A stretch of 64,000 nucleotides of DNA from a candidate division WOR-3 bacterium (GCA_039803925.1 JBDRZL010000005.1:9969-73968), one strand, 5' to 3'. Numbered from the stretch's first letter, positions 7,581 through 26,198 are shown. Notes: generated by a model from the letters alone, not told the origin. Translations and numbers: made by a program.

Positions 7581-7656
7581 TAACCTTGACTTTTGTAAAA
7601 TTTTTTTTTAAAATTGTAGCTTGAAAATTTTTAATTTAAAATAATAAAATATTAAA

Positions 7657-8043
7657 ATGAAAACGATGAAAACGATCAGATGGGCTTTAATTTTGATTTT
7701 CAGTGGGGGATGCTTCTATTATTCCCCAGAGTCGGATCCTTATAAAATAGAAGTTCCTATTGAAGAAACTATGACTAAACCTGAGCTTCAAAAGGTTTCA
7801 CTTATGTTGGAGGTAATGGATGCAAAAACCATGCAAAATATTCCGGATGTTAAACTGGTTATACTTGGTACCCCTTTACCACCTTATACTCTTGAAAAGG
7901 GAAAGAAAGAATTAATAATTCCTCCTGGAAGATACAGATTTAAATTTTCTGCTAAAAATTATAAAGAGGTAATTAAAGAAATTAATGTTTTTCAAAATAC
8001 ATCACTTACCTTTTATCTTGAAAAAGAAGAGGTGGAAAAATGA
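7657..8043 (+). CDS. Small lipoprotein, first gene of the Tad locus (possible secretin pilotin or accessory)
   Basis: Signal peptide plus lipobox (LIFSGGC). 128 aa. Its stop overlaps the secretin start (ATGA). Confidence 0.5.
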   Translation: MKTMKTIRWALILIFSGGCFYYSPESDPYKIEVPIEETMTKPELQKVSLMLEVMDAKTMQNIPDVKLVILGTPLPPYTLEKGKKELIIPPGRYRFKFSAKNYKEVIKEINVFQNTSLTFYLEKEEVEK

Positions 8044-9338
8044 TTTTAAAACTGTTTATTGTTTCATATCTCGTATTATTTGAGGGATATTCAAAACTTT
8101 TTAAGTTTGTGAGACCCGTTAAAAGTGTTGCTATCGGCAATCCTGATATTTTGGGAATGAGACTCCTTTCTGACCGTGAGGTTTTACTGAATGCTCTGAA
8201 GGAAGGTGTAACAAATATGATTATTTTTACAGATAGAGGAACTCAGGAAATAGAATGTGTAATTAAAAAAAGAGATCCCCTCCAATTTTATAAACCTAAA
8301 ACTTTGAGGACTGATGTTTGGGTTCTTGAAGTGGAAAGAAATGTTAATTCAGATTATGGATGGGACTGGCTAAAGCAACTCGGATTTTCAGAATATAAAA
8401 TTCCAGAAACTTTTCCTCTTGATATTGGACCCATAAAGAGAACAACTAATTTATCAAGTACACTTAATTTTCTTGAGGAAAAGGGTATATTGAAAATTTT
8501 ATCAAATCCATCCCTTGTGGTTCTTGAAGACAAAACCTCAGAATTTCTGAGTGGAGGAGAGATACCTGTGGTTATAGCACAGGCACTTGGAACTGCTACT
8601 ATTGAATGGAAAGAATACGGTGTAAAACTTAAAATTTCAGGTAAACTTGATGATGAAGGTTATATAATATTAAATTTGGAACCAGAAATTTCTGATCTTG
8701 ATTATGCAAATGCTGTTACTTTTCAAGGTTATGTTATACCTGCTATAAGAAAGAATAATGCAAAAGTTGAAGTTAAACTCTTACCAGGTGAGAGTATTCT
8801 GATAGGGGGGTTAAAAAGGAAAAATGTTCAGGAATTTAGAAGTTATTTGCCAATCCTCGGTAAAATTCCTTTACTCGGGAAGCTACTATTTTCAAGGGTT
8901 ACTCGTAATGATGTTATAAAGGATGTGGTTTTTATTGTCACGCCTTATGTATTACCCTATGAAAGAGGAGCAGCACAGATTCATATTTTTAAAGGGACAA
9001 AAACAAAGGAATTTTATATTCCTACAAAAATTATTGATGGTAATACCTATTTTGAACTTTCAGATTTATTTAAAAAAGAACTTGATATATGGTATAAATG
9101 GATAGAGGAAGGAAAGTTAGCTGAAATAAATTTTGGTAAAAGAAAATCTTTTCTTTCAGTTGAAAAGTCAACTCTTGAAATAGATGGGGTTGCTTTTCCG
9201 CTTCAGCCTGAGGTGAAAATTCTTGATAAGGTTTTATTTGTTCCCTTTTCCTTTTTTGAAACAATTGGTTTATCAGGTTTCTGGGACGCTTACACAAATG
9301 ATTTCTATGTTCTTGAAACCTTGAAAGAAAAAGAGTAG
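8040..9338 (+). CDS. cpaC: Tad/Flp pilus secretin (CpaC/RcpA family) with C-terminal copper-amine-oxidase-N-like stalk domain
   Basis: N-terminal pilus-formation domain (VKSVAIGNPDILGMRLLSD...GTQEIECVI). Secretin core ending in LPILGKIPLLGKLLFSR...VVFIVTPYVL. The extra ~120-aa C-terminal domain (STLEIDGVAFPLQPEVKILDKVLFVPFSFFETIGLSGFWDAYTNDFYVLE) resembles Cu_amine_oxidN1. Confidence 0.75.
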   Translation: MILKLFIVSYLVLFEGYSKLFKFVRPVKSVAIGNPDILGMRLLSDREVLLNALKEGVTNMIIFTDRGTQEIECVIKKRDPLQFYKPKTLRTDVWVLEVERNVNSDYGWDWLKQLGFSEYKIPETFPLDIGPIKRTTNLSSTLNFLEEKGILKILSNPSLVVLEDKTSEFLSGGEIPVVIAQALGTATIEWKEYGVKLKISGKLDDEGYIILNLEPEISDLDYANAVTFQGYVIPAIRKNNAKVEVKLLPGESILIGGLKRKNVQEFRSYLPILGKIPLLGKLLFSRVTRNDVIKDVVFIVTPYVLPYERGAAQIHIFKGTKTKEFYIPTKIIDGNTYFELSDLFKKELDIWYKWIEEGKLAEINFGKRKSFLSVEKSTLEIDGVAFPLQPEVKILDKVLFVPFSFFETIGLSGFWDAYTNDFYVLETLKEKE

Positions 9339-9340
9339 TT

Positions 9341-11515
9341 ATGAAGAAATATGCTTTGATAGGTGCAAAGGGAGGTGTAGGTGTATCTGTTTTATCATCA
9401 CTTTTATCCTATGAAATCTCTCTGAAAAAAAAGAGTGTACTTTTAATTGAGGCAGAAAATCACGGGGATCTCCCCTACATTTTCGGATCAGATTCAAAGA
9501 AGAGTTTTAAAGAAGCCCTTGATAGTTTCAAAAAGGAGAAAAAGTTTAAAGGTGAATTTATATATGGCTATTCTTCTTATCCTTCAAAACTCCATATGAT
9601 ATTTTCTAAAACTGGTGAAATATGGGATAAAGAATATGATTTTATAGGTCCCTTATTAAAGAGAATTGAACCTGATTATGATTATGTGCTCTTTGATTGC
9701 GGGCACACCATTGATGAAAAAATTTTGAATATTCTTGATATTGTGGATCTTATTTTTGTTGTGATGAAGAATGATTTTCTATCACTTGCAAAGTCAAAGA
9801 ATTTAAGGGAAATTTTCAGATTAAGGTATTATCCTCCCCAGAAGATAGAATATGTAATAAACTTCTTTAATGAAGATGGAATTTCCTTGGAAGAAATAGA
9901 AAAGATTTTGGAAAAAGAGATTCTCTTTCTTTTGCCAGAAGATGAATCAATTTTGAGTGTAACAGAGTTTGGTTTTGATACGGGAAAAGAAAAAATTTCT
10001 CAGGTTTTTAAAGAGAAAATTAAAGAGATATCAGCTTTTATTTTAGGTGAATTAAGAAGAGAAGATTTTATGGAAAAAAGAAAGGAGGTAAAAAGAGACT
10101 TTTTAAGTGGTATTTTTAGAAGAAGGAAAAAAGAGGATAGGGATGAAAAAAAAGTAGCAGAAGTAGTGACTGAATCAAAACCAGGTGAAAGTGTTTTGGT
10201 GGAAGAAGTTGTAGAAGAGGTTCCCTATGAAGTAAAAAAGTTAATCCATGGACATATTGTTAAAGAAATGACATTATCTGGTGAACTTACAGCAACAGTA
10301 GAAAGTGCTACATATAGAGAAGAAATTAGAAAAAAGGTGGAAAAGTTAATAGTAGAAAAATTAGATGAATTTAATATTCCTTTACCATCTCAGGAAGTTA
10401 GAAAAAAATTTGTGGAGGATATGATAAAAGAAATACTCGGACTTGGCCCACTTGAAGATCTTCTCGCTGATCCTGAGGTTACTGAAATTATGGTTAATGC
10501 TCCTAATAAGATTTACATAGAAAAAGGAGGAAAAATTTATCTGACTGATAGAAGCTTTTTCAATGAAACTCAACTGAGGATGGTGATAGAAAGAATTGTT
10601 GCACCAATTGGAAGAAGAGTTGATGAGGCTTCTCCTCTATGTGATGCAAGATTACCAGATGGTTCAAGAGTAAATATAACACTTCCCCCTGTTTCTATTG
10701 ACAGTCCTACGATAACTATAAGAAAATTCAGGAAAGAACCTTTCACCTATCAGGATCTTGTTAATTTTGGTTCAATAGCAGATTTTATGGTTGATTTTTT
10801 AAAGGCTTGTGTCTATGTAAAGAAAAATATAGTTGTGGCAGGTGGAACTGGTTCAGGTAAAACAACCCTTTTAAATGTTTTATCTTCATTCATTCCTGAG
10901 GATGAAAGGATAGTTACAATTGAGGATACTGCTGAGCTAAGATTGCAGCAACCTCATATAGTAAGACTTGAAGCAAGACCACCCAACATAGAGGGAAGAG
11001 GAGAAATTACAATAAGAGATCTTGTTAGAAATGCTTTAAGAATGAGACCCGATAGGATAATAGTTGGTGAGTGTAGAGGGGGAGAAGCTCTTGATATGCT
11101 CCAGGCTATGAACACAGGTCATGAAGGCTCTCTTACAACGGTGCACGCTAACTCCCCTCGGGATACATTATACAGGCTTGAGACAATGGTTTTAATGGCT
11201 GGAACTGAGCTTCCTGTTTCAGCAATAAGAAATTACATAGCCTCAGCTATTGATTTTATAGTTTTTGTGGAAAGAATGAGAGATGGAAAAAGGAGGGTTA
11301 CAAAAATATCAGAGATTACAGGAATTGAGGGAGATATAATAACAATGCAGGATATATTTATTTTTAAACAGAAGGGAGTCTCCGAAAAAGGTGAGATAAT
11401 AGGTGAATTTATGGGGACTGGAATAAGACCAAAAGTTCACGAAGAGTTTGAAATTAAGGGTGTTAAAATTGATCAGAGTATATACTATAAAGGGAGGAAA
11501 GAGGAATCATGGTGA
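9341..11515 (+). CDS. cpaF: Fusion protein: CpaE-like ParA/MinD-fold domain with degenerate P-loop, joined to a CpaF/TadA secretion ATPase
   Basis: The N-terminal ~245 aa follows the CpaE pattern (GAKGGVGVS...YDYVLFDCGH...DLIFVVM) but has GVS where the canonical Walker A has GKT. A charged linker follows. The C-terminal ~420 aa is VirB11/CpaF-like (GGTGSGKTTLLN Walker A; IVGECRGGEALDMLQAMNTGHEGSLTTVHANSP). Confidence 0.8.
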   Translation: MKKYALIGAKGGVGVSVLSSLLSYEISLKKKSVLLIEAENHGDLPYIFGSDSKKSFKEALDSFKKEKKFKGEFIYGYSSYPSKLHMIFSKTGEIWDKEYDFIGPLLKRIEPDYDYVLFDCGHTIDEKILNILDIVDLIFVVMKNDFLSLAKSKNLREIFRLRYYPPQKIEYVINFFNEDGISLEEIEKILEKEILFLLPEDESILSVTEFGFDTGKEKISQVFKEKIKEISAFILGELRREDFMEKRKEVKRDFLSGIFRRRKKEDRDEKKVAEVVTESKPGESVLVEEVVEEVPYEVKKLIHGHIVKEMTLSGELTATVESATYREEIRKKVEKLIVEKLDEFNIPLPSQEVRKKFVEDMIKEILGLGPLEDLLADPEVTEIMVNAPNKIYIEKGGKIYLTDRSFFNETQLRMVIERIVAPIGRRVDEASPLCDARLPDGSRVNITLPPVSIDSPTITIRKFRKEPFTYQDLVNFGSIADFMVDFLKACVYVKKNIVVAGGTGSGKTTLLNVLSSFIPEDERIVTIEDTAELRLQQPHIVRLEARPPNIEGRGEITIRDLVRNALRMRPDRIIVGECRGGEALDMLQAMNTGHEGSLTTVHANSPRDTLYRLETMVLMAGTELPVSAIRNYIASAIDFIVFVERMRDGKRRVTKISEITGIEGDIITMQDIFIFKQKGVSEKGEIIGEFMGTGIRPKVHEEFEIKGVKIDQSIYYKGRKEESW

Positions 11516-12345
11516 CTTTAATTTTGATTATCCTTACAATTATAGGTGCTATTTATATTTTAATAATTTTTCTTGAAGAATTTTTTATCTATTATATAAG
11601 GAATATTCAGCAAAAACTGGATCCTGCTGATTTTCCTGTTAAAAATTTTATTTTACTCGAACTCAGACTTTTATTTGGTCTTTCCATTATTACATATCTC
11701 TTTCTAGGTAAAACTTTAGCAACTAAAATTTTTGTCATTCTTTTATTTACAGTTCTTATAATAATTTTCTTTCCTCAGTATGCTTATACGATAAGAAATA
11801 AATGGATAGAGAAATTTAATGACCAACTGGAGGAAGGGATGAGATTAATTGTGAGTGGATTGAGGGCTGGTCTTGGTTTTAATCACTGTTTGAGGATAGT
11901 GGTTCAGCAGATGCCTCCCCCAATGAAAACAGAATTTAAAAGGGTTCTTGATGAGGTCTCTCTTGGAGTACCTCTTGAAGAAGCTCTTCATCATCTGGAA
12001 GAAAGGATTCCTTCCAGAGAACTTAAAATATTTACAAGTGCGGTAATTTTGCAGAGGAAAACAGGTGGTTCTCTTGTGGATGTTCTTTCAGGTATAGCAG
12101 ATACAATAAAGGCAAGAAGAAGATTGAAGAGAAGGATAGATACACTTACTGCTGAAGGAAGGTTATCAGCTATAGTCCTTACTCTTTTACCCCTTTTTTT
12201 GTTAATTTTATTAAGAATAACACAACCAGACCTTTTTGCCCCTATGCTTGAAGAACCGATAGGTATTCTAATGCTTTTTATTGCAGCCTTCCTTGATTTA
12301 ATGGCAGCCCTTTGGATAAGAAAAATAATTACTATAGAAATATGA
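11509..12345 (+). CDS. tadB: Tad pilus inner-membrane platform protein TadB (T2SSF domain)
   Basis: T2SSF domain: GLRAGLGFNHCLRIV...ALHHLEERIPSRELKIFTSAVILQRKTGGSLVDVL. Flanking TM segments. Confidence 0.8.
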   Translation: MVTLILIILTIIGAIYILIIFLEEFFIYYIRNIQQKLDPADFPVKNFILLELRLLFGLSIITYLFLGKTLATKIFVILLFTVLIIIFFPQYAYTIRNKWIEKFNDQLEEGMRLIVSGLRAGLGFNHCLRIVVQQMPPPMKTEFKRVLDEVSLGVPLEEALHHLEERIPSRELKIFTSAVILQRKTGGSLVDVLSGIADTIKARRRLKRRIDTLTAEGRLSAIVLTLLPLFLLILLRITQPDLFAPMLEEPIGILMLFIAAFLDLMAALWIRKIITIEI

Positions 12346-13244
12346 TACTTTTAATTTTTATATTATCTTTTATTGCTTTTTATTACCTTGTTCTCGCTTT
12401 TATTCCTTCACCTGAAGAAGTGGCTTTATCTTCACGTCTCGAGAGATTAAGGAGAAGGAGGGTTAGAATTGAAATTGCCTCAAAAATTATTGCCTACCTG
12501 GCTCCCTTTGCTGAGATAATCGTTAAGATTTTAAAAAAATATTTACCAGAAGATTATTTAAATTCTCTTGAAAAGAAAATGGAAATGGCTGGAGAAAGAG
12601 GTAAATCAGTAGAAGCAGTTCTTATGGAAAAAGTAATAAGTGGTTTTGTATTTTACATTGTTTCAATTATAATAATGATACTTATTTTTAATGCACCTTT
12701 TTCTTTTAGTCTTATTATGGGATTTGTAGTTCTTTTTGCGGGATTTTTTTATAAGGATTTTAGTTTAAATCAGGAGATAAAAAGGAGACATTATTTAATA
12801 CAAAAAGATTTGGGTGATGCATTGGACCAATTAAACACCGCAGTACAAGCAGGCCTGGGATTCAATGCAGCTTTCCAGTATGTGACAGAGGCTATGCACC
12901 CATGTCCACTGAGAGAAGAATTTGCCTTAATGCTCTCTGAGCTTAGATTGGGTAAAAAAAGGACTGATGCTTTGAGAGCCCTTGCTGATAGAACTCAACA
13001 TCCGGATCTTACACTTGTTGCAATTACAATAGCCCATGGAGAAGAGCTTGGTGCCCCAATAACCCAGACATTAGCTTCTCTTGCTGATGAAGTTAGAAGG
13101 AAGAGATGGGATCAAGCAGAAGAAAGAGCTGCAAAAACCCCTGTTCTTATAGTAATACCCACTATACTTTTAATTTTACCTACCATATTTATTATAATTT
13201 TTGGCCCTTTTGTTTTATATTATCTATTCGGAGGAGGTATGTAA
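12312..13244 (+). CDS. tadC: Tad pilus inner-membrane platform protein TadC (T2SSF domain)
   Basis: DALDQLNTAVQAGLGFNAAFQYV...LRLGKKRTDALRALADRTQHPDLTLVAITIAHGEELGAPITQTL with TM helices. Confidence 0.8.
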   Translation: MDKKNNYYRNMILLIFILSFIAFYYLVLAFIPSPEEVALSSRLERLRRRRVRIEIASKIIAYLAPFAEIIVKILKKYLPEDYLNSLEKKMEMAGERGKSVEAVLMEKVISGFVFYIVSIIIMILIFNAPFSFSLIMGFVVLFAGFFYKDFSLNQEIKRRHYLIQKDLGDALDQLNTAVQAGLGFNAAFQYVTEAMHPCPLREEFALMLSELRLGKKRTDALRALADRTQHPDLTLVAITIAHGEELGAPITQTLASLADEVRRKRWDQAEERAAKTPVLIVIPTILLILPTIFIIIFGPFVLYYLFGGGM

Positions 13245-13245
13245 A

Positions 13246-14019
13246 ATGAAAGGTTTTTTATTTTTTATAATACTCACAAATCAGAGCCCTGAGGAAAGGG
13301 CTGATCTTTACATAAAGCTTGCGGATTATAAAAATGCTGTAATGGAGTATTCTGATTTGATTTTTAAAAAACCTGAAGATAAAAAATTAAGAGAAAAACT
13401 CTTATTCAGTGCAAATAAATATATTGAAAAAAATTTCCTGAAAATGGATAAAGAAATTTTGGAAAAGGCTTTATCAAAGTATAGAAATGGAGAGCTTGAT
13501 TCAGCTTTATATTTATCAAAAATTTTATACGATAAATTTTATTTTGAGCCAGAAGTAGTTACTTTTTATCAAAGATGCTTATGGACAGTTGATACTCTAA
13601 GAAAACTTTATTCCCTTTTAATAGATACTGAAAGGAAAAAAGATTATCAAGCAGCCCACAGGTATGCACTGGAGATTAAAAATATTTATCCCAGTTATCC
13701 TGAAATTGATGAAAAAATAAATTATTACTTTAGTAAAATACCGAAGGTTGAGGAAAAAAGACCCCTCGTAGTTGAAAGAAGGGAGGTAGTGAAAAAACCT
13801 GTTGAAAAACCTGTTGAAGCTGAAAAGGCTATTAAGGTGGAAGAAGATGTTCAGGCAAAAGTTCAGGAACTTTATAAAAGAGGTGTTACACTTTACAGTG
13901 AGGGAAAATTAGAAGAAGCAAGGGAAATTTTTAGAGAGATACTCAAAATTGATCCTCAAAATACAAAAGTAAGGAGAAATCTTGCAGTAATAGAAGAAAG
14001 ATTAAGGGGGAGAAGATAA
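13246..14019 (+). CDS. TPR-like repeat protein (TadD-like accessory?)
   Basis: Helical repeat sequence, C-terminal TPR-like segment LYSEGKLEEAREIFREILKIDPQNTKVRRNLAV. Sits in the Tad operon. Start set to ATG 13246. Confidence 0.45.
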   Translation: MKGFLFFIILTNQSPEERADLYIKLADYKNAVMEYSDLIFKKPEDKKLREKLLFSANKYIEKNFLKMDKEILEKALSKYRNGELDSALYLSKILYDKFYFEPEVVTFYQRCLWTVDTLRKLYSLLIDTERKKDYQAAHRYALEIKNIYPSYPEIDEKINYYFSKIPKVEEKRPLVVERREVVKKPVEKPVEAEKAIKVEEDVQAKVQELYKRGVTLYSEGKLEEAREIFREILKIDPQNTKVRRNLAVIEERLRGRR

Positions 14020-17872: not shown

Positions 17873-17875
17873 AAA

Positions 17876-19003: not shown

Positions 19004-20538
19004 TAAAATATATTAAAAAAATAAGTCCTGAAAAAATAGTTAAAAGATTCGAATATTTTGTAAAAAGGAAATCAAAAACTGAAGCCTTTTTAACTTTTTT
19101 ATCCTTTATAGGTTTAAGATTTTTCTTTGAAACTTTATTAGAATCTGCACATGCTGTTGAAAATAAATTTGATTTTATTTTACATTTTTACCTCTTTTTT
19201 ATAGCACTTTTCATTTTAATTTATATTTATTTAAGGTTTTTTTTTGAAAAAGAATTTATATTTAAACTTATATGTTATGGTTTTTTTATTATAATTTTAC
19301 CCCCTTTTGTTGATTTTATACTATCAGGTGGAAAAGGTTTTGTTTTGAGCTATTTAACAAAAACCTCACAAATACCTACTATATATTTTTCTCTCTTTAC
19401 TTCACCTTTCACAGTAACCTTTGGTGCAACACCAGGAATTAAAATTGAAGTTTTAATTATTGATTTTTTTCTTTCTATTTATCTTTTTTTTAGATTAAGT
19501 GGAATAAAAAAAAAGATTATACCGATTTTAAATTTTTTTATCTTTCCTTTTTTCCCTCTTCTTTTGAGCTCAATTTTTGCTATAGAAGAACTATATTATT
19601 ATTCACTTGTTACTCCGATTTTTATTGCAAAGCCTACAATTCCAAATCTTTTTTTTATAATAATAATCTTAGTTCTTTCTTTTTTTGCTTTTAAAGAATA
19701 TTTTCCAGAAAGAGTAAATATTTTTTCCTTTATATTTCCTTTTATAACTCTTTTAGTAATTGTTTTATATTCTATTAAAATTAGTGAATTTGTTCCGAGA
19801 TTTCTCTTTTTGCCTGGTAATATCCTTTATATTATATTACAAACTCTTTCGGTATTTTTTTTATATATATCCTTTAATAGAGAAAAATTGTACATTTTAC
19901 CTTTAGTCCTATCCTTTCTCTTGATTTCTATCCAATCTTCAGCTACAATAGTTGCTTTTTTTGTTTTTTCATTATGTTTTTATGTTTACAGAAATTACCC
20001 CTTCTTATATAACTTTTTGTTTTTAACTTATTCTTTAATTATAGGACTTACTTTCTTTGCTCTCGGAAGTAAAATTCCTTTTCCTGATTTTAAAAATCAT
20101 ATTTTCAGATTATCAGCGGATTTCTATAAGAAAGAGAAAAAATACTCTAAAGCAATTAATCTTTTATCAAAGATTTCCAAAAAAGAATTCTACGATTACT
20201 TTAAATTATCAGAGTTATCTTTTTTAAATGGGGATTTTATGGATTTTGATATTTTTCTTGAAATTTCACAGATTAAATATATTTCAGCCCCTCCTCACTA
20301 TAGATCAATAGATAATAGGGTAGATTTCTGGAAACTGGAAAAGGAAAGATTCTTGAAAGAAAAAGATTATTCCCTTTTATACATGACAGCACTCTCTGTT
20401 TTAAATCCAAGAGTTGAAAGTGAAAATATACTTAAATTTCTTTATGAATTGAGTGATAATATTGAAGAGAGAGAAAAATTAAAATTGAAAAAATTTTTAG
20501 CTATATATGGGTATAAAAAGTTTTCCACATACCCTTGA
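19000..20538 (+). CDS. Polytopic membrane protein (about 12 TM) with C-terminal soluble helical domain; unknown function
   Basis: Highly hydrophobic F/I/L-rich segments through about aa 360, then a charged helical C-terminal region. ATGA overlap with cpaB. Confidence 0.4.
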   Translation: MIKYIKKISPEKIVKRFEYFVKRKSKTEAFLTFLSFIGLRFFFETLLESAHAVENKFDFILHFYLFFIALFILIYIYLRFFFEKEFIFKLICYGFFIIILPPFVDFILSGGKGFVLSYLTKTSQIPTIYFSLFTSPFTVTFGATPGIKIEVLIIDFFLSIYLFFRLSGIKKKIIPILNFFIFPFFPLLLSSIFAIEELYYYSLVTPIFIAKPTIPNLFFIIIILVLSFFAFKEYFPERVNIFSFIFPFITLLVIVLYSIKISEFVPRFLFLPGNILYIILQTLSVFFLYISFNREKLYILPLVLSFLLISIQSSATIVAFFVFSLCFYVYRNYPFLYNFLFLTYSLIIGLTFFALGSKIPFPDFKNHIFRLSADFYKKEKKYSKAINLLSKISKKEFYDYFKLSELSFLNGDFMDFDIFLEISQIKYISAPPHYRSIDNRVDFWKLEKERFLKEKDYSLLYMTALSVLNPRVESENILKFLYELSDNIEEREKLKLKKFLAIYGYKKFSTYP

Positions 20539-20595
20539 CAAAAATACCCCTTTAAATTTATAATTATATTGAGGGTAAGATAGTGGGAGGTAAAA

Positions 20596-20769
20596 ATGAA
20601 GGTAATAAAATTAATATATAACGAAAAGGGTGAGGCCGCAGTTGAATATGCGGTCTTAATTGGAATTTTTGGATTTCTTGGTATTTTTCTATTAAATTAT
20701 GCTCTTTTCCTCCTCGGAAGTGATCTCCTTTATAAATGGTATAATTTTTTTTACTCATTAAAACCATGA
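20596..20769 (+). CDS. flp: Flp/Fap family pilin (57 aa)
   Basis: RBS GGAGG at 20586. MKVIKLIYNEKGEAAVEYAVLIGIF with the Flp motif G-x-A/T-A-V-E-Y-A then a hydrophobic helix. Below the ORF-track length cutoff. Confidence 0.7.
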   Translation: MKVIKLIYNEKGEAAVEYAVLIGIFGFLGIFLLNYALFLLGSDLLYKWYNFFYSLKP

Positions 20770-20918
20770 AAATCGTAAAAAGGGAAGAAGGTGCTGTTGC
20801 TATCGAGTATGCTCTTATTATAGGAGTGATTGCCCTATTTTCTTATTTGGCCTGGAAAATGTTAGGTTTTGTTTTAAGACTTGTTGTAATGAAGCTTTTA
20901 TATGTTTTATTATGGTAA
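20766..20918 (+). CDS. flp: Flp/Fap family pilin (50 aa)
   Basis: MKIVKREEGAVAIEYALIIGVIALF. ATGA overlap with the previous pilin. Confidence 0.7.
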   Translation: MKIVKREEGAVAIEYALIIGVIALFSYLAWKMLGFVLRLVVMKLLYVLLW

Positions 20919-20931
20919 AGGAGGTCTGAAT

Positions 20932-22347
20932 ATGAGTAAAAAAAGAAGAGGTCAGGTAATGGTAGAGGCAGCAATTGGTATGGCTTTATTTTTGATGCTC
21001 ACTCTTGGTGCCATTGAAACTGCAAGATTTGCTTTGAGGAGAATTCAGATTACTTATGCATCCTTTCAGGCAAATAGGGTTGCTATTGTAAATAAAGGTG
21101 ATACAACTGCTGTTAGAAAGGCACTTCAATCTATTTCAACACACATAAAAGATGCTAAATTTGAGTTAAAGGATGAAGGAGATGAATATTCTTTAGTTGT
21201 TAGAAGAACCTTTCACCCCTTGATTCCTTTTGTTAATGTGGATTCATTAGTTTTTGTAGGTTATTCAAGACTTCCGAAAGGTCATTTTCAGAATAAAGAA
21301 TTTCCTTATAAATATAAAGGTTATAGCACGTATTATCCTGCTTTATGGAATTCTTCAGATATGGAAGATGAAAAGGAAGCTGGAATTTTAACTTATGATA
21401 GGTATTTAAGGGCTTTTATAAGGTGTGAGAATAATAGGTATGAGAGGTGGAATCCTGGGTGGGGACCTTTTGGGGAATATGGTGGTGGAGGTGAAGCAGA
21501 AGTCAAGGTTGGTGGAAAGGATGAACCTAATGATCCTTTTCATCTTGGAACATGGTATCCACCTTATGGAATTCTGAGAAACAAAAATCCGGAGAAAGAT
21601 AGAACAGGAAATCAAGCTTTAATTGACCAGTATTATTTTGTTGAAGCAATGTTAATAGGACCATCTTTTTCTCCCTTTTTGACTTTTTATCCTGAGAATA
21701 AACCTTACTGGTCAAGGGCAATTACTGGATTTGGTCATGGTAATAATATAAATAAGGGTAGTGATGCTCATCCTTACAGGGGAGATTTCCTGGAATATTT
21801 TTATTCTCAGGGATATGCTATACCAGGATGGTTTGGTTTCTGGCCAAGGTATGAGGCATTATGGTGGACACCTGTAGGTTGTGCTGACCTTGTTACAGGA
21901 ATTTACTATATAGGAATGGGTAATCAGTGGTTTTCAGATCCATGGGGAGAGTATTACAAAGATGAGGACAATTATATTTCAGGGTGGGGAACAGCATATG
22001 CTGATGCCTGTTGGGATCCGATTCGTACTCCATGGGGATGTATCCCTGGAGCAGGAGTTGGTGATGATTTTCAATTTACAATTTTTAATGGATGGTTTGC
22101 AAATTACAGGGGAACCGGCTCACCCTGGGACTGGAAAGGGACAAGGAGACTTTATGATGCTGCTTTTTATGTAGCTACTTTTAATGAGATTGAATGGATA
22201 TATATGGTTGAAGGTTTTATGGTAGATCATCCTGATCACGGAAAATCTCTTCCTTTTAAGGATGATTTAAGGGGATGGGGGACAAAGTGGGATTGTTTAT
22301 GGTATGAAAGCCCATGGGATGAGTGGGATGGCACAGAAAAACAATAA
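20932..22347 (+). CDS. TadE-like pseudopilin with large Trp/Gly/Tyr/Pro-rich C-terminal domain
   Basis: RBS AAAGGAGG. N-terminus RRGQVMVEAAIGMALFLMLTLGAIE is the TadE motif. The C-terminal ~300 aa carries about 24 Trp (WNPGWGPF, GWFGFWPRYEALWW, SPWDWKG, RGWGTKWDCLWYESPWDEWDG). Confidence 0.6.
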   Translation: MSKKRRGQVMVEAAIGMALFLMLTLGAIETARFALRRIQITYASFQANRVAIVNKGDTTAVRKALQSISTHIKDAKFELKDEGDEYSLVVRRTFHPLIPFVNVDSLVFVGYSRLPKGHFQNKEFPYKYKGYSTYYPALWNSSDMEDEKEAGILTYDRYLRAFIRCENNRYERWNPGWGPFGEYGGGGEAEVKVGGKDEPNDPFHLGTWYPPYGILRNKNPEKDRTGNQALIDQYYFVEAMLIGPSFSPFLTFYPENKPYWSRAITGFGHGNNINKGSDAHPYRGDFLEYFYSQGYAIPGWFGFWPRYEALWWTPVGCADLVTGIYYIGMGNQWFSDPWGEYYKDEDNYISGWGTAYADACWDPIRTPWGCIPGAGVGDDFQFTIFNGWFANYRGTGSPWDWKGTRRLYDAAFYVATFNEIEWIYMVEGFMVDHPDHGKSLPFKDDLRGWGTKWDCLWYESPWDEWDGTEKQ

Positions 22348-22358
22348 GGAGGTGTGAT

Positions 22359-23378
22359 ATGAAGAAAAGAAAAGGTGCAATTTTAGTTTTTGGTATTTTT
22401 TTCATGTTGATAGTTTTTGCTGTTATGGGTTATGTTTATGAAATGGGAAGAATGACAATTGCAAAGATGAGGGCACAGAATGCGGCTGATGCTTCAGCAA
22501 TGGGAGCTCAAACTGTTCTTTCCAATTTAAGGAATATAGCAACAACTCATTATATGACAGCGGATCTTTTCAGAAGAATTGCAGTTACAACAACATCAAG
22601 AGATTTTCCTTTAAGTATGCCGTGGTTATATATATATCTTATAGGTTATTCCTGGTATAAGAAAGATCTTTTTGTTAATGATTTACCGGATGAAACTGCG
22701 GAAAACTTTGTTAAACTTTATCATTTTCTTTTTCATATTCAGGATTTTGCTGTTACAAGAATGCTTGCTGCTTATGATTCCAAAATATTTTTCAGAGATT
22801 TTATAAAAGAGGAAGCAGAGAATCATTTTCCAGTAACAAGAAATAGAATGAAATGGGTTGCTTGGTTTATGAGTTACTTTAATTTATATGATGAAAATCA
22901 GGTTGAAGGTAACGAAATTGGATGGGTCAATCTAAGATTTGATAAGAACGGTCCAGGGTGGGCTCCACCTGGTTTAAGGGTTGATTATGGTGAGGAAGTT
23001 GATGGGCCTAACCCCCACAGGAGAATAAGAAATAAGCATGATGAGATTGAAATTAATAAAAAACTTAGTAGAGCTTACAGTGAAGCTTATGTCCTTATAC
23101 CACCTTCCAATTTTTTGATGAGGACTTTTGTTTCAAGAAACTGGGGTAAAATTGGTGCAATTAAAGAACCTTTCAGTTTTCTTGAAGGTTTTCCATTTGT
23201 TGTTAGAAGTGATGCTGCTTCGGGTCCCAAAGAATTTTACATAAGAGTGGGTTTGCCAGATATTATACCTTTAATAGGCTCACTTCAGGAAGACGGATAT
23301 TGGACATTTCCACAGCTTATACCTACAATAAGAGTAGAAGGTAATAACCCCATTGAGGGTCAATGGCCTTATCATTAA
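22359..23378 (+). CDS. TadG-like protein (Flp pilus-assembly TadG N-terminal domain)
   Basis: RBS AAGGAGG. MKKRKGAILVFGIFFML...AKMRAQNAADASAMGAQTVL matches the TadG_N pattern (RxxLQNAADAAALAGA). Confidence 0.6.
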   Translation: MKKRKGAILVFGIFFMLIVFAVMGYVYEMGRMTIAKMRAQNAADASAMGAQTVLSNLRNIATTHYMTADLFRRIAVTTTSRDFPLSMPWLYIYLIGYSWYKKDLFVNDLPDETAENFVKLYHFLFHIQDFAVTRMLAAYDSKIFFRDFIKEEAENHFPVTRNRMKWVAWFMSYFNLYDENQVEGNEIGWVNLRFDKNGPGWAPPGLRVDYGEEVDGPNPHRRIRNKHDEIEINKKLSRAYSEAYVLIPPSNFLMRTFVSRNWGKIGAIKEPFSFLEGFPFVVRSDAASGPKEFYIRVGLPDIIPLIGSLQEDGYWTFPQLIPTIRVEGNNPIEGQWPYH

Positions 23379-23395
23379 ATAAAGGGGGTTTTAAA

Positions 23396-24154
23396 ATGAA
23401 GGGTAATAAGATAAAATTAAATAAGAGGAAAGGAACATTTCTGGTAGAACTTGCGATTATACTTCCTATTTTTGTTTTGCTTTTATCCTGGATTTTTATG
23501 TTAGGAATGATATTGCATAGGAAGCAGGTAGTAACTCTTGCAGCAAGAGCAGGAGCTCAGTATGCTGTTTATCCTGATCCTGTATATGGTGAGCGTATGG
23601 CAAAAATGGGGGTATGGATGGCTCTCTCTCAGGGTAAAAGAGATGAGGTTGAAAAGAGGGTTAAAGATGTTTTAAAAAGGAATGGTTTAAATCCAGATAA
23701 GGCAAAAATAAATATTGATTGGTTCCCAGTTCCTTTTGTTCCTCCTTTTAAAGAAGGAAGTGTTCAAAATCCTGGTCAAAACGGAAGAGCAACAGTTCAT
23801 GCTCTTTACACAGACATGTTAGGTGGAAACAACTGTAGCACAAGATGCCATTCAGGACTTGTCAGACAGGAACTTAAGAGAGAGTTTGATGATGATTCAA
23901 GGTATAGATACACAGAATACAGAATTCCATGTGATATATGGGTTGTTAAGGTAAAGGTGGAGTACCCACTTGGAGAATCAATACTCAATCTTTTAAATCC
24001 TATATTCAAATCAGTTGGATTTAAAGGTGATTTAAAACAAGGAAAAGTTGTTGCAAGTTGTGCATTTCCTGCTCCTATGCCTTTTGTCCATGTTGTTTTA
24101 AAAACACCACCCTTATATAAAGCATTATTTGACATTTCAACATACTTTAAGTAG
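23396..24154 (+). CDS. TadE-like pseudopilin
   Basis: KGTFLVELAIILPIFVLLLSWIF TadE motif. Four Cys in the soluble domain. Confidence 0.6.
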   Translation: MKGNKIKLNKRKGTFLVELAIILPIFVLLLSWIFMLGMILHRKQVVTLAARAGAQYAVYPDPVYGERMAKMGVWMALSQGKRDEVEKRVKDVLKRNGLNPDKAKINIDWFPVPFVPPFKEGSVQNPGQNGRATVHALYTDMLGGNNCSTRCHSGLVRQELKREFDDDSRYRYTEYRIPCDIWVVKVKVEYPLGESILNLLNPIFKSVGFKGDLKQGKVVASCAFPAPMPFVHVVLKTPPLYKALFDISTYFK

Positions 24155-24157
24155 AAT

Positions 24158-24664
24158 ATGAATATGATGAAAAAATTAATTCTAATTTTTTTAATAATGA
24201 TGTTAAACTGTAAGTTTAATAATCCTTTTTATCCAAAAGCTGAAATTGTTGTATCAAGTAATCTTCAGACTATAACTCTGAGTTATGAAATATCGCCAGG
24301 ACAAATAAGGTTAACATATCCAAAATTGAAATTATTTTTCAGAGAGATCTATGGTGGAACTTACGGAATAATTGACTCTGCAAGAGTTGATTACTATTAC
24401 CCAGGTTCAGATCCAATTAGAGATTCTATAGTTGAAACACTTCCCACTTACAGAAAAGGTATTTTACTTTATGTTCCACCTGACAATGAAGTTACAACTG
24501 AGTTTGATTTAGTTACAGATGATGTAGAAAATTTATTTGCCCCTAACAAAGGTAATTTTGAAGGTCCTCTCAATGCTATTATGACATTTTATGGAAAAGA
24601 TGGAAATGAACATAATTTTAAACTTTTTTTAACTTTTACTTTACAAAGAGTTATACCTGATTAA
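24158..24664 (+). CDS. Lipoprotein, Tad locus-associated, unknown function
   Basis: Signal peptide with lipobox MLNCK. 168 aa. Confidence 0.5.
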   Translation: MNMMKKLILIFLIMMLNCKFNNPFYPKAEIVVSSNLQTITLSYEISPGQIRLTYPKLKLFFREIYGGTYGIIDSARVDYYYPGSDPIRDSIVETLPTYRKGILLYVPPDNEVTTEFDLVTDDVENLFAPNKGNFEGPLNAIMTFYGKDGNEHNFKLFLTFTLQRVIPD

Positions 24665-24702
24665 ATGGGTTCAAATCCCAAAAAAACATAGGAGGTTTTA
24701 AG

Positions 24703-24873
24703 ATGAAGTTTTTAAGGTGTGAGAGAGGAGCGACAGCAGTGGAGTATGCGATGATAATAGGGCTTATAGCCCTATTTGCATTTGCTGCCTATAAGGCTCT
24801 TGGAAAGCAGGTTCAGAGGGTGATCCACGAAATGTGGAATAAGATGACAGAAGCCTCTGCTGGGCCTGAGTAA
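24703..24873 (+). CDS. flp: Flp/Fap family pilin (56 aa), copy 1 of duplicated pair
   Basis: RBS GGAGG. MKFLRCERGATAVEYAMIIGLIALFAFAAYKALGKQ... The upstream region and the gene together (24661-24873) are about 98% identical to 25101-25313. Confidence 0.75.
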   Translation: MKFLRCERGATAVEYAMIIGLIALFAFAAYKALGKQVQRVIHEMWNKMTEASAGPE

Positions 24874-24916
24874 TTTTATAAAATTTATGGGGTTCAAATC
24901 CCCCCTGCCCTTTAAG

Positions 24917-25093
24917 ATGATTATGCTAAAAAATATTCTGATAGATGAAAGGGCGGGGACGAGTGTGGAATATGGATTTCTTCTCGGAATTTCTGGTCTC
25001 TCTGCTTTTTATGCTTATGTTGCTAAAAAAGTAGAAGATTTAATAAATGAATTTACAACAAAGTTTTTTTATATATATGCTGGACCTCCATAA
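24917..25093 (+). CDS. flp: Flp/Fap family pilin (58 aa), divergent
   Basis: MIMLKNILIDERAGTSVEYGFLLGISGLSAF. No clear Shine-Dalgarno. Preceded by the GGTTCAAATCC motif. Confidence 0.55.
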   Translation: MIMLKNILIDERAGTSVEYGFLLGISGLSAFYAYVAKKVEDLINEFTTKFFYIYAGPP

Positions 25094-25142
25094 TAGATAT
25101 ATTTTAGGGTTCAAATCCCAAAAAAACATAGGAGGTTTTAAG

Positions 25143-25313
25143 ATGAAGTTTTTAAGGTGTGAGAGAGGAGCGACAGCAGTGGAGTATGCGATGATAATAG
25201 GGCTTATAGCCCTATTTGCATTTGCTGCCTATAAGGCTCTTGGAAAGCAGGTTCAGAGGGTGATCCACGAAATGTGGAATAAGATGACAGAAGCCTCTGC
25301 TGGACCTGAATGA
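25143..25313 (+). CDS. flp: Flp/Fap family pilin (56 aa), copy 2 of duplicated pair
   Basis: Identical to the 24703 gene except for the last codons. The ORF-track N-terminal extension from 25047 is an artifact. Confidence 0.75.
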   Translation: MKFLRCERGATAVEYAMIIGLIALFAFAAYKALGKQVQRVIHEMWNKMTEASAGPE

Positions 25314-25477
25314 TGAAGTTGTTAATAAGGGAAGAAAAAGGTGCATCTGCAGTTGAATATGCGATGCTTATAGGACTTATTTCTCTTTATGCTTTTGCAG
25401 CTTATAGAGCACTTTCAAGGGTGACTTATGCGGTAATAGAGCATATGTGGAATGAATTAACAAAAGCAGGGGGGTAA
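25310..25477 (+). CDS. flp: Flp/Fap family pilin (55 aa)
   Basis: MMKLLIREEKGASAVEYAMLIGLISLYAFAAYRAL. ATGA overlap with the previous pilin. Confidence 0.65.
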   Translation: MMKLLIREEKGASAVEYAMLIGLISLYAFAAYRALSRVTYAVIEHMWNELTKAGG

Positions 25478-25482
25478 TAACT

Positions 25483-25656
25483 ATGAAGAAATTTTTTAAA
25501 AATGAGAAAGGTGCTACTGCTGTTGAATATGCAATGATTATAGGGTTGATAGCATTATTTGCTTTTGCTGCTTATAAGGCACTTGGAAAAGAGGTTCACA
25601 GGATAATTGTATGGATGAAGTTTAAATTTATGACTATCCATGCTGGTCCTGAATGA
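25483..25656 (+). CDS. flp: Flp/Fap family pilin (57 aa)
   Basis: MKKFFKNEKGATAVEYAMIIGLIALFAFAAYKALGKE. Confidence 0.7.
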   Translation: MKKFFKNEKGATAVEYAMIIGLIALFAFAAYKALGKEVHRIIVWMKFKFMTIHAGPE

Positions 25657-26198
25657 TTTATGATATTATTAAGTTCCAAATTGTTGGACTTGTTGTGATA
25701 ATTTCAGTATATACTGATTTAAAATACGGTAAGATTTTTAATAAATTGACATTCCCTTTCTTTTTTACAGGATTTCTTTATAACTTTATGTTTAAAGGAT
25801 TTTCTGGTTTAGTTTCTTCCTTTATAGGTTTTTTGGTATCTTTTATTCCCTTTTTTATATTCTTTCAGCTGGGTGGGGTTGGTGGTGGTGATGTGAAACT
25901 TCTTGCAGGTATAGGTTCCTGGGTTGGTTATCCTCAGGTTCTTTGGATTATTTTTATGACTTCTATTTCAGGTCTTTTTATATCTATCTTGGTGAGTCTT
26001 TTTAAGGGTAAAATTGAATTTGTTTTAAAGGGTGCTTTTAGGGAAGGAAAAGAAAGTGTTAGAAATTTTATCTTTTCTCTATTTACTAAAAATCCAGAAT
26101 TTTTAGATAAAAATAGAGAATTTAAACTTTATGTTCCCTATTCTTTAGCCATAGCATCTGGGACTTTTTTAGGTTTAATAATTAATTTTTCACTATGA
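25653..26198 (+). CDS. tadV: Prepilin peptidase CpaA/TadV (A24 family)
   Basis: Multi-TM protein with the conserved second catalytic Asp in GGGDVKLLAGIG. ATGA overlap with the last flp gene. Confidence 0.75.
   Translation: MIYDIIKFQIVGLVVIISVYTDLKYGKIFNKLTFPFFFTGFLYNFMFKGFSGLVSSFIGFLVSFIPFFIFFQLGGVGGGDVKLLAGIGSWVGYPQVLWIIFMTSISGLFISILVSLFKGKIEFVLKGAFREGKESVRNFIFSLFTKNPEFLDKNREFKLYVPYSLAIASGTFLGLIINFSL

Follow-up and report, generated by a model that had tools for sequence, protein, structure and literature searches.

The gene cluster at positions 7657-26198 on the plus strand of the window (the whole stretch of 64,000 nucleotides analysed here) raises the question of whether an uncultured hot-spring thermophile of the WOR-3 / Hydrothermales lineage builds a new kind of envelope machine or a familiar one with added parts. 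The initial annotation suggested that it may be an undescribed adhesion or secretion nanomachine variant. The 18.5-kb region is a complete Tad/Flp (type IVc) adhesive-pilus gene cluster, in which every core family is present. The component checklist was taken from the TXSScan Tad model (Denise et al., 2019; PMC6668835), and profile searches against Pfam and NCBIfam placed the core domains above the curated cut-offs. No sign of a new class was found, and lineage-specific accessory proteins are already a recognised feature of Tad systems (PMC13170226). The locus thus encodes a well-known machine with three lineage-specific additions and not a new machine type. Its 22 genes form a single locus on one strand, and the only non-Tad genes are the clade-specific ones. 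All reading frames listed in the initial annotation were recovered on the plus strand with unchanged coordinates. The genes are as follows.

7657-8043 (+), O1, small lipoprotein of 128 aa; CarboxypepD_reg-like beta-sandwich (PF13715, E 1.3e-5, below cut-off)
8040-9338 (+), O2, Tad-type secretin (RcpA/CpaC); PF00263 E 1.3e-32, PF13629 (T2SS-T3SS_pil_N) E 2e-13
9341-11515 (+), O3, TadZ-TadA (CpaE-CpaF) fusion ATPase of 724 aa; PF13614, PF00437, TIGR03819
11509-12345 (+), O4, TadB inner-membrane platform protein of 278 aa; one T2SSF domain (PF00482, E 1.6e-21)
12342-13244 (+), O5, TadC inner-membrane platform protein of 300 aa from the ATG at 12342; one T2SSF domain (PF00482, E 5.4e-20)
13246-14019 (+), O6, TPR protein of 257 aa; TPR_14 E 1.7e-9, TPR_2 E 6e-8
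14019-15302 (+), O7, clade-specific protein with two TM helices (residues 6-24 and 169-187); Cache-like and PP2C-fold domains
15299-17872 (+), O8, clade-specific secreted protein of 857 aa; divergent LVIVD beta-propeller repeats
17876-19003 (+), O9, CpaB/RcpC; PF16976 (RcpC) E 2e-20, PF08666 (SAF) E 2.5e-12
19000-20538 (+), O10, clade-specific polytopic membrane protein; about 11 TM segments and a C-terminal helical domain of about 155 aa
20596-20918 (+), O11 and O12, Flp-type prepilins of 57 and 50 aa; motifs G/EAAVEY and G/AVAIEY
20932-24154 (+), O13-O15, TadE, TadG-like (Tad) and TadE pseudopilins of 471, 339 and 252 aa; PF07811 E 6e-7, PF13400 E 1e-7, PF07811 E 2.7e-8
24158-24664 (+), O16, small lipoprotein of 165-168 aa, 3' of the pseudopilins; conserved Cys, with NNPFYP(E/K)A after it in relatives
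24703-25656 (+), five Flp prepilin genes; PF04964, processing motifs G/ATAVEY etc.
25653-26198 (+), O22, TadV-type prepilin peptidase, A24 short form; PF01478 (Peptidase_A24) E 7.8e-20

The gene order is secretin, tadZA, tadB, tadC, TPR gene, O7, O8, cpaB, O10, two flp genes, pseudopilins, lipoprotein, five flp genes and tadV. It is as unusual as had been claimed, since cpaB is displaced downstream of tadC rather than lying ahead of the secretin gene. The O1-O10 junctions range from -7 to +3 nt, with five ATGA/TTGA overlaps among them, and GGAGG sites precede many genes of the locus. The likely true starts are at 12342 for TadC (a length of 300 aa is also called in sister assemblies), at 13246 for the TPR protein, and at 20932, 22359 and 23396 for the pseudopilins, whose reading frames were scanned as 20902-22347, 22323-23378 and 23363-24154.

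The secretin carries the PF13629 N-domain that is typical of Tad secretins and an additional C-terminal Cu_amine_oxidN1-like domain (PF07833, E 1e-7) at residues 322-423. Separate CpaE and CpaF proteins had been annotated; both domains are present, but they are encoded by one fused gene. In O3, a ParA/MinD-like N-domain is followed by a charged linker and the T2SSE motor. The N-terminal part matches PF13614 (AAA_31) at residues 2-152 (E 2.4e-10), contains the Walker A sequence KGGVGVS at residues 10-16 and lacks the N-terminal receiver-like domain; it is assigned as TadZ by the domain and Walker A matches. The TadA part matches PF00437 at residues 367-641 (E 1.3e-63), and the match of O3 to the TadA family model TIGR03819 (E 2e-102) scores 343 bits, which is below the equivalog cut-off of 373 bits. 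The nearest relatives of the CpaF part are ordinary Tad ATPases of Victivallales, Bacillota and Proteobacteria. The match of O9 to the CpaB model TIGR03177 is well above the cut-off (134 and 71 bits, respectively), and the protein has a C-terminal extension of about 100 aa.

Six accessory genes had been regarded as novel, of which O7, O8 and O10 are indeed without precedent, but the TPR protein and the two lipoproteins are not. A small lipoprotein adjoining the Tad secretin is a known theme, as exemplified by CpaD, RcpB and TadD (PMC13170226). The invariant cysteine is kept in both O1 and O16, in agreement with their annotation as lipoproteins. O1 is present in all relatives with 52-80% identity, its lipobox region GC-FYYSPExDPY is invariant in 7 genomes, and its gene shares an ATGA overlap with the secretin gene. 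We propose that O1 is a secretin partner or pilotin analogue, which may substitute for RcpB/TadD. O16 matches no family in Pfam or NCBIfam; it shows 45-65% identity to its counterparts in the relatives L008, L030 and L031. O6 lies after tadC, in the canonical position of tadD. Its TPR matches are generic, with weak NCBIfam matches to the pilus TPR proteins PilW, BamD and Amuc_1098, and its short, hydrophobic N-terminus lacks a lipobox cysteine. No RcpB, CpaD or CpaI homologue was detected at the locus with the profiles used, none of which was specific for TadD or RcpB.

As annotated initially, there are seven Flp-type prepilins with the G/xxxxEY motif (20596-20769, 20766-20918, 24703-24873, about 24917-25093, 25143-25313, 25310-25477 and 25483-25656). 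The 24703-24873 prepilin exceeds the Flp_Fap (PF04964) cut-off (33.0 and 32.2 bits, respectively), and that at 25143-25313 also clears it because it is an identical copy; two flp genes represent a duplication of 208 nt at 99% identity. Flp_Fap scores fell below the cut-off, at 24-25 bits, in two other prepilins, one of them that at 25310-25477 with 24.6 bits. Two prepilins gave no match to Flp_Fap in Pfam, including the 24887-25093 reading frame that holds the gene at about 24917-25093, and the 25483-25656 prepilin, scanned against NCBIfam only, had no match. The number of flp copies varies among sister assemblies. O11 and O12 (the latter matching PF04964 with E 2.5e-5) are strongly hydrophobic, are encoded immediately 5' of the pseudopilin genes and are kept in relatives; they are candidate minor Flp pilins, and the five downstream prepilins are candidate major pilins. 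The three annotated TadE/G pseudopilins were confirmed by two PF07811 matches and one PF13400 match, all above the gathering scores. The matches lie at the N-terminal prepilin segments, and each protein has one N-terminal TM helix. O13-O15 are candidates for a pilus-tip complex; large TadE/F/G complexes with associated minor Flp pilins have been described to form pilus tips (PMC12075869).

In canonical Tad/Flp systems (Aggregatibacter flp-rcp-tad, Caulobacter cpa, and P. aeruginosa tad/rcp), all the core families are likewise found in one locus, and the TPR gene takes the same place as O6. The present locus differs from them in several respects: cpaB is away from the secretin gene, tadV and the major pilin genes close the cluster, tadZ and tadA make up one fused gene, no TadD-type lipobox is present in the TPR protein, RcpB, CpaD and CpaI homologues were not detected, the secretin has the C-terminal Cu_amine_oxidN1 domain, and three clade-specific genes are added. 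The fusion itself has a precedent. A TadZA hybrid of Tad locus 1 in B. bacteriovorus is functional and essential (preprint 10.64898/2026.07.08.737194) and, like O3, consists of TadZ (ParA/MinD-like with a K/RGGxGxS/T Walker A motif), a linker and TadA in one polypeptide, after which tadB follows. A 738-aa reading frame in a Bdellovibrionota MAG is the same fusion, and residues 16-715 of O3 align to it with 39% identity. Unlike the present locus, the Bdellovibrionota TadZA locus has the canonical order cpaB, secretin, tadZA and tadB, and it has no PP2C, LVIVD or O10-like genes. Tad systems are known to vary in the proteins that connect the outer and inner membranes (PMC13170226).

O7, O8 and O10 are carried in databases as hypothetical proteins, and none has a Pfam or NCBIfam family. 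The initial annotation of O7 as a PP2C-like membrane sensor was supported by its fold and by weak Cache matches. A periplasmic Cache-like domain (approximately residues 28-160) lies between the two TM helices and is followed by a cytoplasmic PP2C-fold domain (approximately residues 220-421). In the AlphaFold2 model, the block-mean pLDDT was 68-90 for the C-terminal domain and below 50 for the periplasmic domain, which is of low confidence. A Foldseek search against the PDB yielded 142 matches at E<=1e-3 (best E 3e-9, TM (target) 0.68-0.76); the best 50 of these were all PP2C-type phosphatases, and the top fold matches were RsbX (3w40, TM (target) 0.76), SpoIIE (5mqh), RssB (3es2) and Stp1. Cache_WalK matched 6 of the 9 family members and sCache_4 matched weakly (7e-4). 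A Cache-like extracytoplasmic domain between two TM helices is a usual input of PP2C/SpoIIE membrane sensors. O7 thus has the PP2C alpha-beta sandwich fold in common with the membrane PP2C/SpoIIE phosphatases and with RssB, whose PP2C domain is inactive. It differs from the enzymes, however, in having no profile match at the sequence level and in the apparent replacement of the canonical metal-binding aspartates. PF07228, PF13672 and PF00481 gave no match even at E 10 in nine O7 family members, and O7 had no match among PDB sequences. The aspartate ligands of the binuclear Mn/Mg center of PP2C sit in the GD, DGxGG, TDG and DD/DN motifs. The corresponding positions in the nine O7 sequences read N/S, I/S, G and E (PN/PS, I-S-G-G, T/S-G-N/G and E-G/E-N). 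These positions were placed by eye from predicted secondary structure and the PP2C motifs and not by a computed superposition, so that the loss of the metal ligands is provisional; the cytoplasmic domain is probably catalytically dead. In the literature searched, no PP2C protein of this kind has been described for a Tad locus.

O8 has a conserved Sec signal peptide (...TLxGG/DY) and no T9SS-like tail. It gave sub-threshold matches to beta-propeller and LVIVD (PF08309) models, with E 0.0055 for the latter. In an exhaustive profile search, full-length orthologues comprised only two 50%-identity clusters, both of which sit inside Tad loci, plus one 319-aa fragment. The profile matched 1429 library proteins at E<=1e-10, and the five next-best matches scanned were all strong LVIVD-repeat proteins (LVIVD E 1e-41 to 1e-121), which supports the earlier description of O8 as an LVIVD beta-propeller. 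The profile repeatedly matches LVIVD-repeat cell-surface proteins, but O8 itself barely matches the Pfam model and lacks their Ig-like and other adhesin modules. O10, described initially as a 12-TM protein, is indeed polytopic but has about 11 hydrophobic segments. Its model is of low confidence (pLDDT 51.9) and gave no reliable fold match; about 120 residues were aligned in the fold match, and the Asp-rich motifs of UbiA were looked for and not found in O10.

The three clade-specific genes are conserved together with the Tad genes in each relative identified, and their order is identical in all nine relatives fetched. Gene content and order agree in L007-L010 and L030-L032 as far as their contigs extend, with 62-96% identity over the O1-O10 genes except O1. 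In the deeper, partial locus of L029, identities are 59-60% for TadB/C, 52% for CpaB, 43% for the TPR protein, 37% for O7 and 39% for O8, and O7 and O8 still lie after tadC/TPR and before cpaB, the gaps being 11 nt at most. No relatives of O7, O8 or O10 were detected beyond the WOR-3 order Hydrothermales/Caldifarciminales; the O7 and O10 searches consisted of a word-index search and one pattern scan, by which distant relatives outside the clade were possibly missed. The flanking ribosomal operon is also syntenic in the genomes bearing the accessory genes, which all belong to one order, so that the co-conservation may partly reflect inherited gene order and not selection. No paper was found that ties O7, O8 or O10 to Tad.

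Two promoter-like sites were located.

7586-7614 (+), promoter-like site TTGACT-N17-TAAAAT; consensus scan 10/12, weak evidence
20520-20564 (+), internal promoter, GTTTTCCACAT box followed by TTGACA-N18-TATAAT; consensus 12/12

The former lies in the AT-rich gap of 280 nt that separates O1 from the divergent spc ribosomal operon; TTGAyT...TAAAAT-like strings are found upstream of O1 in relatives, where the alignment is poor. The latter precedes the first flp gene by 32 nt, in a 57-nt gap. In six genomes, the flanking sequence diverges but the GTTTTCCACAT box and both hexamers do not vary, and the exact GTTTTCCACAT box occurs once in the 64-kb window. A single operon had been proposed from ATGA or short-overlap junctions. 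The tight junctions were borne out for O1-O10, but the conserved internal promoter makes a single transcript doubtful; transcription would probably start from at least two promoters, upstream of O1 and of the first flp gene.

The T9SS cargo reported initially on the same chromosome amounts to a sub-threshold resemblance. A D(V/I)SGRK...VK motif, seen by eye, is common to the tails of neighbouring proteins, and two of the five tails match Por_Secre_tail (PF18962 / TIGR04183) with E 0.0013 (19.4 bits; cut-off 27) and E 0.055. The full-length neighbouring proteins gave no match to Por_Secre_tail. No Tad-locus protein bears such a tail, and nothing observed therefore links the Tad locus to a T9SS-like system.

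From this analysis, we consider it reasonably probable (roughly 60%) that the locus encodes a working Tad pilus machine to which O7, O8 and O10 have been added as a module. By homology to characterised Tad systems, TadV would process all seven Flp prepilins and the three pseudopilins by cleavage at G/xxxxEY, and the TadZ-TadA fusion ATPase would drive the TadB/TadC platform to polymerise Flp subunits. The filament would exit via the RcpA-type secretin, with CpaB as the periplasmic conduit and the O1 lipoprotein and O6 TPR protein as putative secretin helpers like CpaD, RcpB and TadD. O11 and O12, the two hydrophobic Flp proteins, are encoded together with the large TadE/G proteins O13-O15, and these five probably form a priming or tip complex; shaft subunits would come from the five flp genes further downstream. 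O7, O8 and O10 are translationally coupled; they sit on either side of cpaB in the stretch that runs from tadC/TPR to the pilin genes. As a best guess, O7 and O8 would make up an additional envelope module that surrounds CpaB. O8 may act in the periplasm, where its LVIVD beta-propeller would serve as a scaffold or binding partner; O7 may be a Cache-type transmembrane sensor whose degenerate PP2C domain serves as a cytoplasmic protein-binding output, e.g. to TadZA, and not as a phosphatase; and O10 is an integral-membrane factor, possibly an enzyme acting on pilins or the envelope.

Other readings concern the clade-specific genes. They could be passengers, i.e. unrelated genes for envelope or sensor functions that entered the Tad locus in the order's ancestor and were kept through kinship with no role in the pilus. 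Their confinement to one order with a syntenic ribosomal operon and their absence from distant Tad loci, that of Bdellovibrionota with TadZA among them, would fit this, as would a second, unrelated LVIVD protein in the window at 32838-34799 (-), which indicates that LVIVD proteins are common in this genome. We nevertheless find it rather unlikely: the order and tight spacing persist in L029 despite 37-39% identity of O7 and O8, start/stop overlaps (ATAATG, ATGA and TTGA) join the accessory genes to tad genes on both sides, and cpaB, an essential Tad gene, separates O8 from O10, so that the accessory genes are not excisable as one block. It also seems improbable that O7 is an active membrane PP2C phosphatase and O10 a pilin- or envelope-modifying enzyme, together making up a regulatory and maturation layer in place of structural parts. 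The substitutions at all four canonical Asp positions in 9 of 9 sequences (by-eye alignment) speak against it, as do the lack of a kinase, STAS or FHA partner encoded in the locus and, for O10, the unreliable model without UbiA motifs or a Pfam match.

The locus could also encode a Tad-derived device for purposes other than adhesion, either a Kil-like contact-dependent apparatus or a T2SS-like pseudopilus exporting O8 or the adjacent NIDO/M4 protease. Descriptions of the TadZA fusion otherwise come from the predator B. bacteriovorus, a NIDO-domain protein lies within the L008 locus, and an M4/NIDO protease is encoded directly 3' of tadV in the window. With 471 and 339 aa, the pseudopilins are larger than usual and have extra minor Flp genes next to them, as in the Kil/'Tip' system of Myxococcus xanthus, where several minor Flp pilins stand beside large TadE/F/G-like pseudopilins; the variable C-terminal domains of the latter have been proposed to decorate the tip of the pilus (PMC12075869). 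This likeness is one of gene arrangement, with no sequence homology to Kil tips seen, and there is neither a T3SS*-like partner nor an indication of a predatory lifestyle. The CpaF part is closest to ordinary Tad ATPases, the five shaft-type flp genes suggest a real filament, the position of the NIDO proteins is not conserved, and, against the export variant, O23 has a T9SS-like tail motif of its own (Por_Secre_tail gave no match to O23 even at E 10). We regard such a device as distinctly improbable.

The preferred reading, a Tad pilus with an added module, is in line with the pili observed by negative staining in sy37, the only strain of the WOR-3 lineage in culture (PMC12285271). NCBI taxonomy places Ca. 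Hydrothermales under Caldifarciminales; the assignment of sy37 to this order is our inference, as the description of the strain does not use that name. A further and tentative possibility, which we hold to be unlikely, is that O7, O8 and possibly O10 are genuine subunits, structural or regulatory, of a separate Tad subtype, in which the Cache-type transmembrane pseudo-phosphatase and the periplasmic LVIVD beta-propeller form an extra ring or sensor round CpaB that couples a periplasmic or surface signal directly to the TadZ-TadA motor. If true, this would constitute a built-in signal-transduction layer that is absent from any described type IV filament machine.

The Tad locus occupies 7657-26198 on the plus strand of a window of ~31% G+C. 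MAGs that carry the label candidate division WOR-3 or Candidatus Hydrothermales (e.g., GCA_039803885.1) encode identical copies of the window's proteins, and NCBI taxonomy now places Candidatus Hydrothermales under Caldifarciminales, phylum Caldifarciminota. Searches with Pfam and NCBIfam confirmed the core Tad genes claimed in the initial annotation. All of the ORFs that it listed were found, and its description was accurate apart from CpaE and CpaF; both are present, but as a single fused gene, which is the main correction.

Features of the Tad locus and its flanks.
4717-7375, minus strand: spc ribosomal-protein operon, first gene S17, directly upstream of the Tad locus
8040-9338, plus strand: secretin with a Tad-type N-domain (Pfam/NCBIfam)
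9341-11515, plus strand: ParA/MinD-like domain (AAA_31, Walker A KGGVGVS) and T2SSE/TadA ATPase in one 724-aa ORF (TadZ-TadA fusion, TadZA)
11509-12345 and 12342-13244, plus strand: two T2SSF proteins (TadB and TadC), a single domain each (Pfam/NCBIfam)
14019-15302, plus strand: O7, two TM helices, PP2C-fold cytoplasmic domain and Cache-like periplasmic part
15299-17872, plus strand: O8, conserved Sec signal peptide, with beta-propeller and LVIVD matches only below threshold
17876-19003, plus strand: CpaB (TIGR03177 above cut-off)
about 20932-24154, plus strand: TadE, TadE/G-like and TadE pseudopilins (Pfam/NCBIfam)
25653-26198, plus strand: A24 prepilin peptidase, TadV (Pfam/NCBIfam)
26285-29260, plus strand: 991-aa M4/M36 peptidase with NIDO domains, downstream of the Tad locus

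Seven Flp-type prepilins were detected by a motif scan for G/xxxxEY, two of them encoded ahead of the pseudopilins and the other five ahead of tadV. As a Tad system the locus is genuine and complete, and the displacement of cpaB is among its new features.

At the C-terminus of the secretin (8040-9338, residues 322-423), a Cu_amine_oxidN1-like domain was matched with an E-value of 1e-7; we know of no such domain in the described RcpA/CpaC secretins. The 471-aa TadE-like pseudopilin (20932-22347) has an extended C-terminal region in which Trp, Gly, Tyr, and Pro are abundant and for which no family match was found.

Beside CpaB, the locus encodes O7, O8, and a protein with approximately 11 TM helices (O10), hereafter the extras. 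For O7, O10, and a small lipoprotein (O16), no sequence family was found, with no Pfam, NCBIfam, or PDB sequence match even at E 10. The AF2 model of the O7 cytoplasmic domain has block-mean pLDDT values of 68-90. Its Foldseek comparison with the PDB gave 142 matches at E<=1e-3; 50 of 50 among the matches listed were PP2C-type, and the matches include RsbX, SpoIIE, Stp1, and the inactive C-domain of RssB. The periplasmic part gave weak but consistent Cache matches (Cache_WalK in six of nine family members; sCache_4 to 7e-4). Because the four canonical metal-binding Asp positions, placed by predicted secondary structure and the PP2C motifs, appear to be taken by N/S, I/S, G, and E throughout the nine sequences, the PP2C domain of O7 is probably a pseudo-phosphatase. 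When 1.84 billion representatives were searched exhaustively with an O8 profile, full-length orthologues fell into just two clusters, and a single fragment was also detected. The other matches, in the thousands, were repeat-wise and to large proteins, and all five of the next-best matches scanned were strong LVIVD-repeat proteins. On this basis, O8 is read from sequence as a divergent member of the LVIVD propeller proteins, with an architecture restricted to the clade.

The extras are co-conserved with the Tad genes in eight Hydrothermales loci (L007-L010, L029, and L030-L032), and gene order is unchanged as far as each contig extends. Gene contexts were collected by looking up identical proteins and by scanning genomes and metagenomes. 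Word-index protein searches with O7, O8, and O10 returned six to nine clusters each, all from WOR-3 or Hydrothermales. Scanning genomes with TadZA yielded two close relatives and two stubs, together with 16 distant Tad loci, none of which has the extras; another three close relatives came from scanning metagenomes with the O7 alignment. In the exhaustive O8-profile search, one deeper orthologue (P0025) was found and the rest were only repeat-level LVIVD matches. The most informative relative is L029, a partial locus obtained through the exhaustive search, in which the TadB-TadC-TPR-O7-O8-CpaB block is intact and tightly spaced. Its identities to the window are 59-60% for TadB/TadC, 52% for CpaB, 43% for the TPR protein, 37% for O7, and 39% for O8. 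That the extras diverge faster than the core and yet keep their position argues, at the level of sequence, for a functional tie to the Tad system. Inherited gene order may nevertheless lie behind part of the co-conservation: the extras span a single order, in which even the flanking ribosomal operon is syntenic. Homologues of O1, O6, O7, O8, O10, and O16 were not detectable in any of the 16 distant Tad loci reaching past the ATPase gene, which were sampled from Victivallales, Bacillota, Bdellovibrionota, Proteobacteria, and other groups; the two stubs, which end without downstream sequence, are outside this count.

The TadZ-TadA fusion is not unique to the WOR-3 lineage. A 738-aa protein of a Bdellovibrionota MAG is collinear with it (39% identity), and an 'atypical TadZA' of B. 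bacteriovorus has been described with the same K/RGGxGxS/T motif and linker (2026 preprint 10.64898/2026.07.08.737194). Unlike the locus in the window, the Bdellovibrionota fusion locus has the canonical cpaB-secretin-tadZA-tadB order and no extras. A tie between the extras and the fusion was therefore rejected, and the fusion and the accessory module are independent features. A Clostridiales locus (L012) appeared fusion-like in tblastn but encodes CpaE and CpaF as separate ORFs.

The remaining accessory proteins belong to familiar classes. O1 (7657-8043) and O16 (24158-24664) are both small lipoproteins, and the Cys of their lipobox does not vary among relatives. O6 (13246-14019) is a TPR protein without a lipobox, encoded immediately 3' of tadC, a slot occupied by tadD in classical loci such as the Aggregatibacter operon. 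TadD has been given as a Tad accessory (PMC6668835), and lineage-specific connectors (CpaI, CpaD, and TadD among them) are already known across Tad systems (PMC13170226), a pattern that the window's locus fits. The proposed novelty of the embedded components thus holds for the co-conserved O7-O8-O10 set, which is new, and not for the TPR protein and the lipoproteins as a class, which were already known, as were the fusion ATPase and accessory diversity in general. Public copies of the extras are all annotated as 'hypothetical protein', and our literature search found no earlier description for WOR-3 with Tad, LVIVD with a pilus, or PP2C with Tad.

Transcription as a single operon, also proposed initially, fits O1-O10, where gene junctions range from -7 to +3 nt, but a putative conserved promoter lies inside the locus. 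The first flp gene is preceded by a 57-nt gap that contains a perfect sigma-70-type TTGACA-N18-TATAAT. Across six genomes the two hexamers and a GTTTTCCACAT box directly upstream show no variation, unlike the bases around them, and the exact box occurs once in the window. We read 20520-20564 as a putative conserved internal promoter with a possible operator; the GTTTTCCACAT box may serve some regulator. Such a promoter would allow the pilin/pseudopilin half to be expressed apart from the machinery half. The box occurs twice in L008. Upstream of O1, a weaker promoter-like site was found, and the alignment with relatives is noisy there.

Two of the five downstream flp genes are duplicates: 208-nt stretches at 24667-24874 and 25107-25314 are 99% identical and yield two identical 56-aa Flp genes. 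The duplicate and an odd 68-aa flp gene are missing from the sister assembly L001 and present in L002, so that either copy number varies or the assembly has collapsed. Among the five Flp proteins encoded downstream (24703-25656), four terminate with AGPE or AGPP, and the endings conserved in relatives are AGPE, SGPE, or AGG, indicating a conserved C-terminal tail. A GGGTTCAAATCCC mini-hairpin resembling a tRNA T-arm precedes three flp genes (24667-24680, 24889-24902, and 25107-25120) by about 23 to 36 nt. ARAGORN found no tRNA, and the reading of the motif as part of one was rejected; a role in RNA processing or stability is possible.

Five large secreted proteins in the window end alike, in a D(V/I)SGRK...K(V/I)(I/L)(V/I)K tail resembling a T9SS sorting domain.

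Proteins with the C-terminal tail.
575-2461, plus strand: S8 protease with dockerin
26285-29260, plus strand: M4/M36 and NIDO protease
31004-32803, minus strand: unassigned secreted protein
32838-34799, minus strand: second LVIVD protein
47347-49920, minus strand: NHL propeller

The best Por_Secre_tail E-values for the tails, 0.0013 and 0.055, are both below threshold, and full-length scans of these proteins gave no T9SS sorting-domain match. The assertion that T9SS cargo is encoded on the same chromosome thus has only sub-threshold matches behind it. Since no Tad-locus protein has the tail, we saw no evidence for a functional Tad-T9SS link.

On the flanks, the spc operon starts at S17 and the L29, L16, and S3 genes are absent upstream, so that the usual S10-spc linkage is broken, an arrangement kept beside the Tad locus in all relatives. 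Within its Tad locus, L008 has an extra 611-aa NIDO-domain protein (L008 19529-21364), encoded between O16 and the flp cluster; it lacks the T9SS-like tail and shares 49% identity with the C-terminal NIDO portion of the M4 protease in the window (26285-29260).

By homology, TadV would mature the precursors of Flp and the pseudopilins, TadB/C and TadZA would polymerise Flp, CpaB would form a periplasmic conduit (PMC12307814), and the pilus would leave through the secretin. By analogy with Kil tips (PMC12075869), the two hydrophobic Flp proteins probably form a priming or tip complex with the three large pseudopilins encoded alongside them. O1 and O6 may help the secretin. O7 and O8 may add a periplasm-spanning sensor or scaffold beside CpaB, with the probably dead PP2C domain of O7 acting as a cytoplasmic docking module, and O10 would be a membrane factor.

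Tad pili drive adhesion, biofilm formation, surface sensing, and predation. Their inner-/outer-membrane connection and regulation vary by lineage and are only now being resolved (PMC13170226, PMC12307814). The locus offers a compact example from a thermophile in a phylum that has hardly been cultured, with three unannotated proteins locked beside CpaB in an assembly operon, and it shows that the TadZ-TadA fusion lately called atypical in Bdellovibrio also occurs in an unrelated, non-predatory lineage. Pili have been shown on the cultured WOR-3 strain sy37 (PMC12285271). From NCBI taxonomy, we infer that sy37 is the type of Caldifarcimen, a name not used in that paper, and belongs to the same order as the window's source; it offers a route to experiments, and the thermostable proteins are suited to structural work. 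If the extras are passengers or simple regulators, this would be an ordinary Tad system of mainly annotation value; if they are subunits, the parts list of type IV filament machines would grow.
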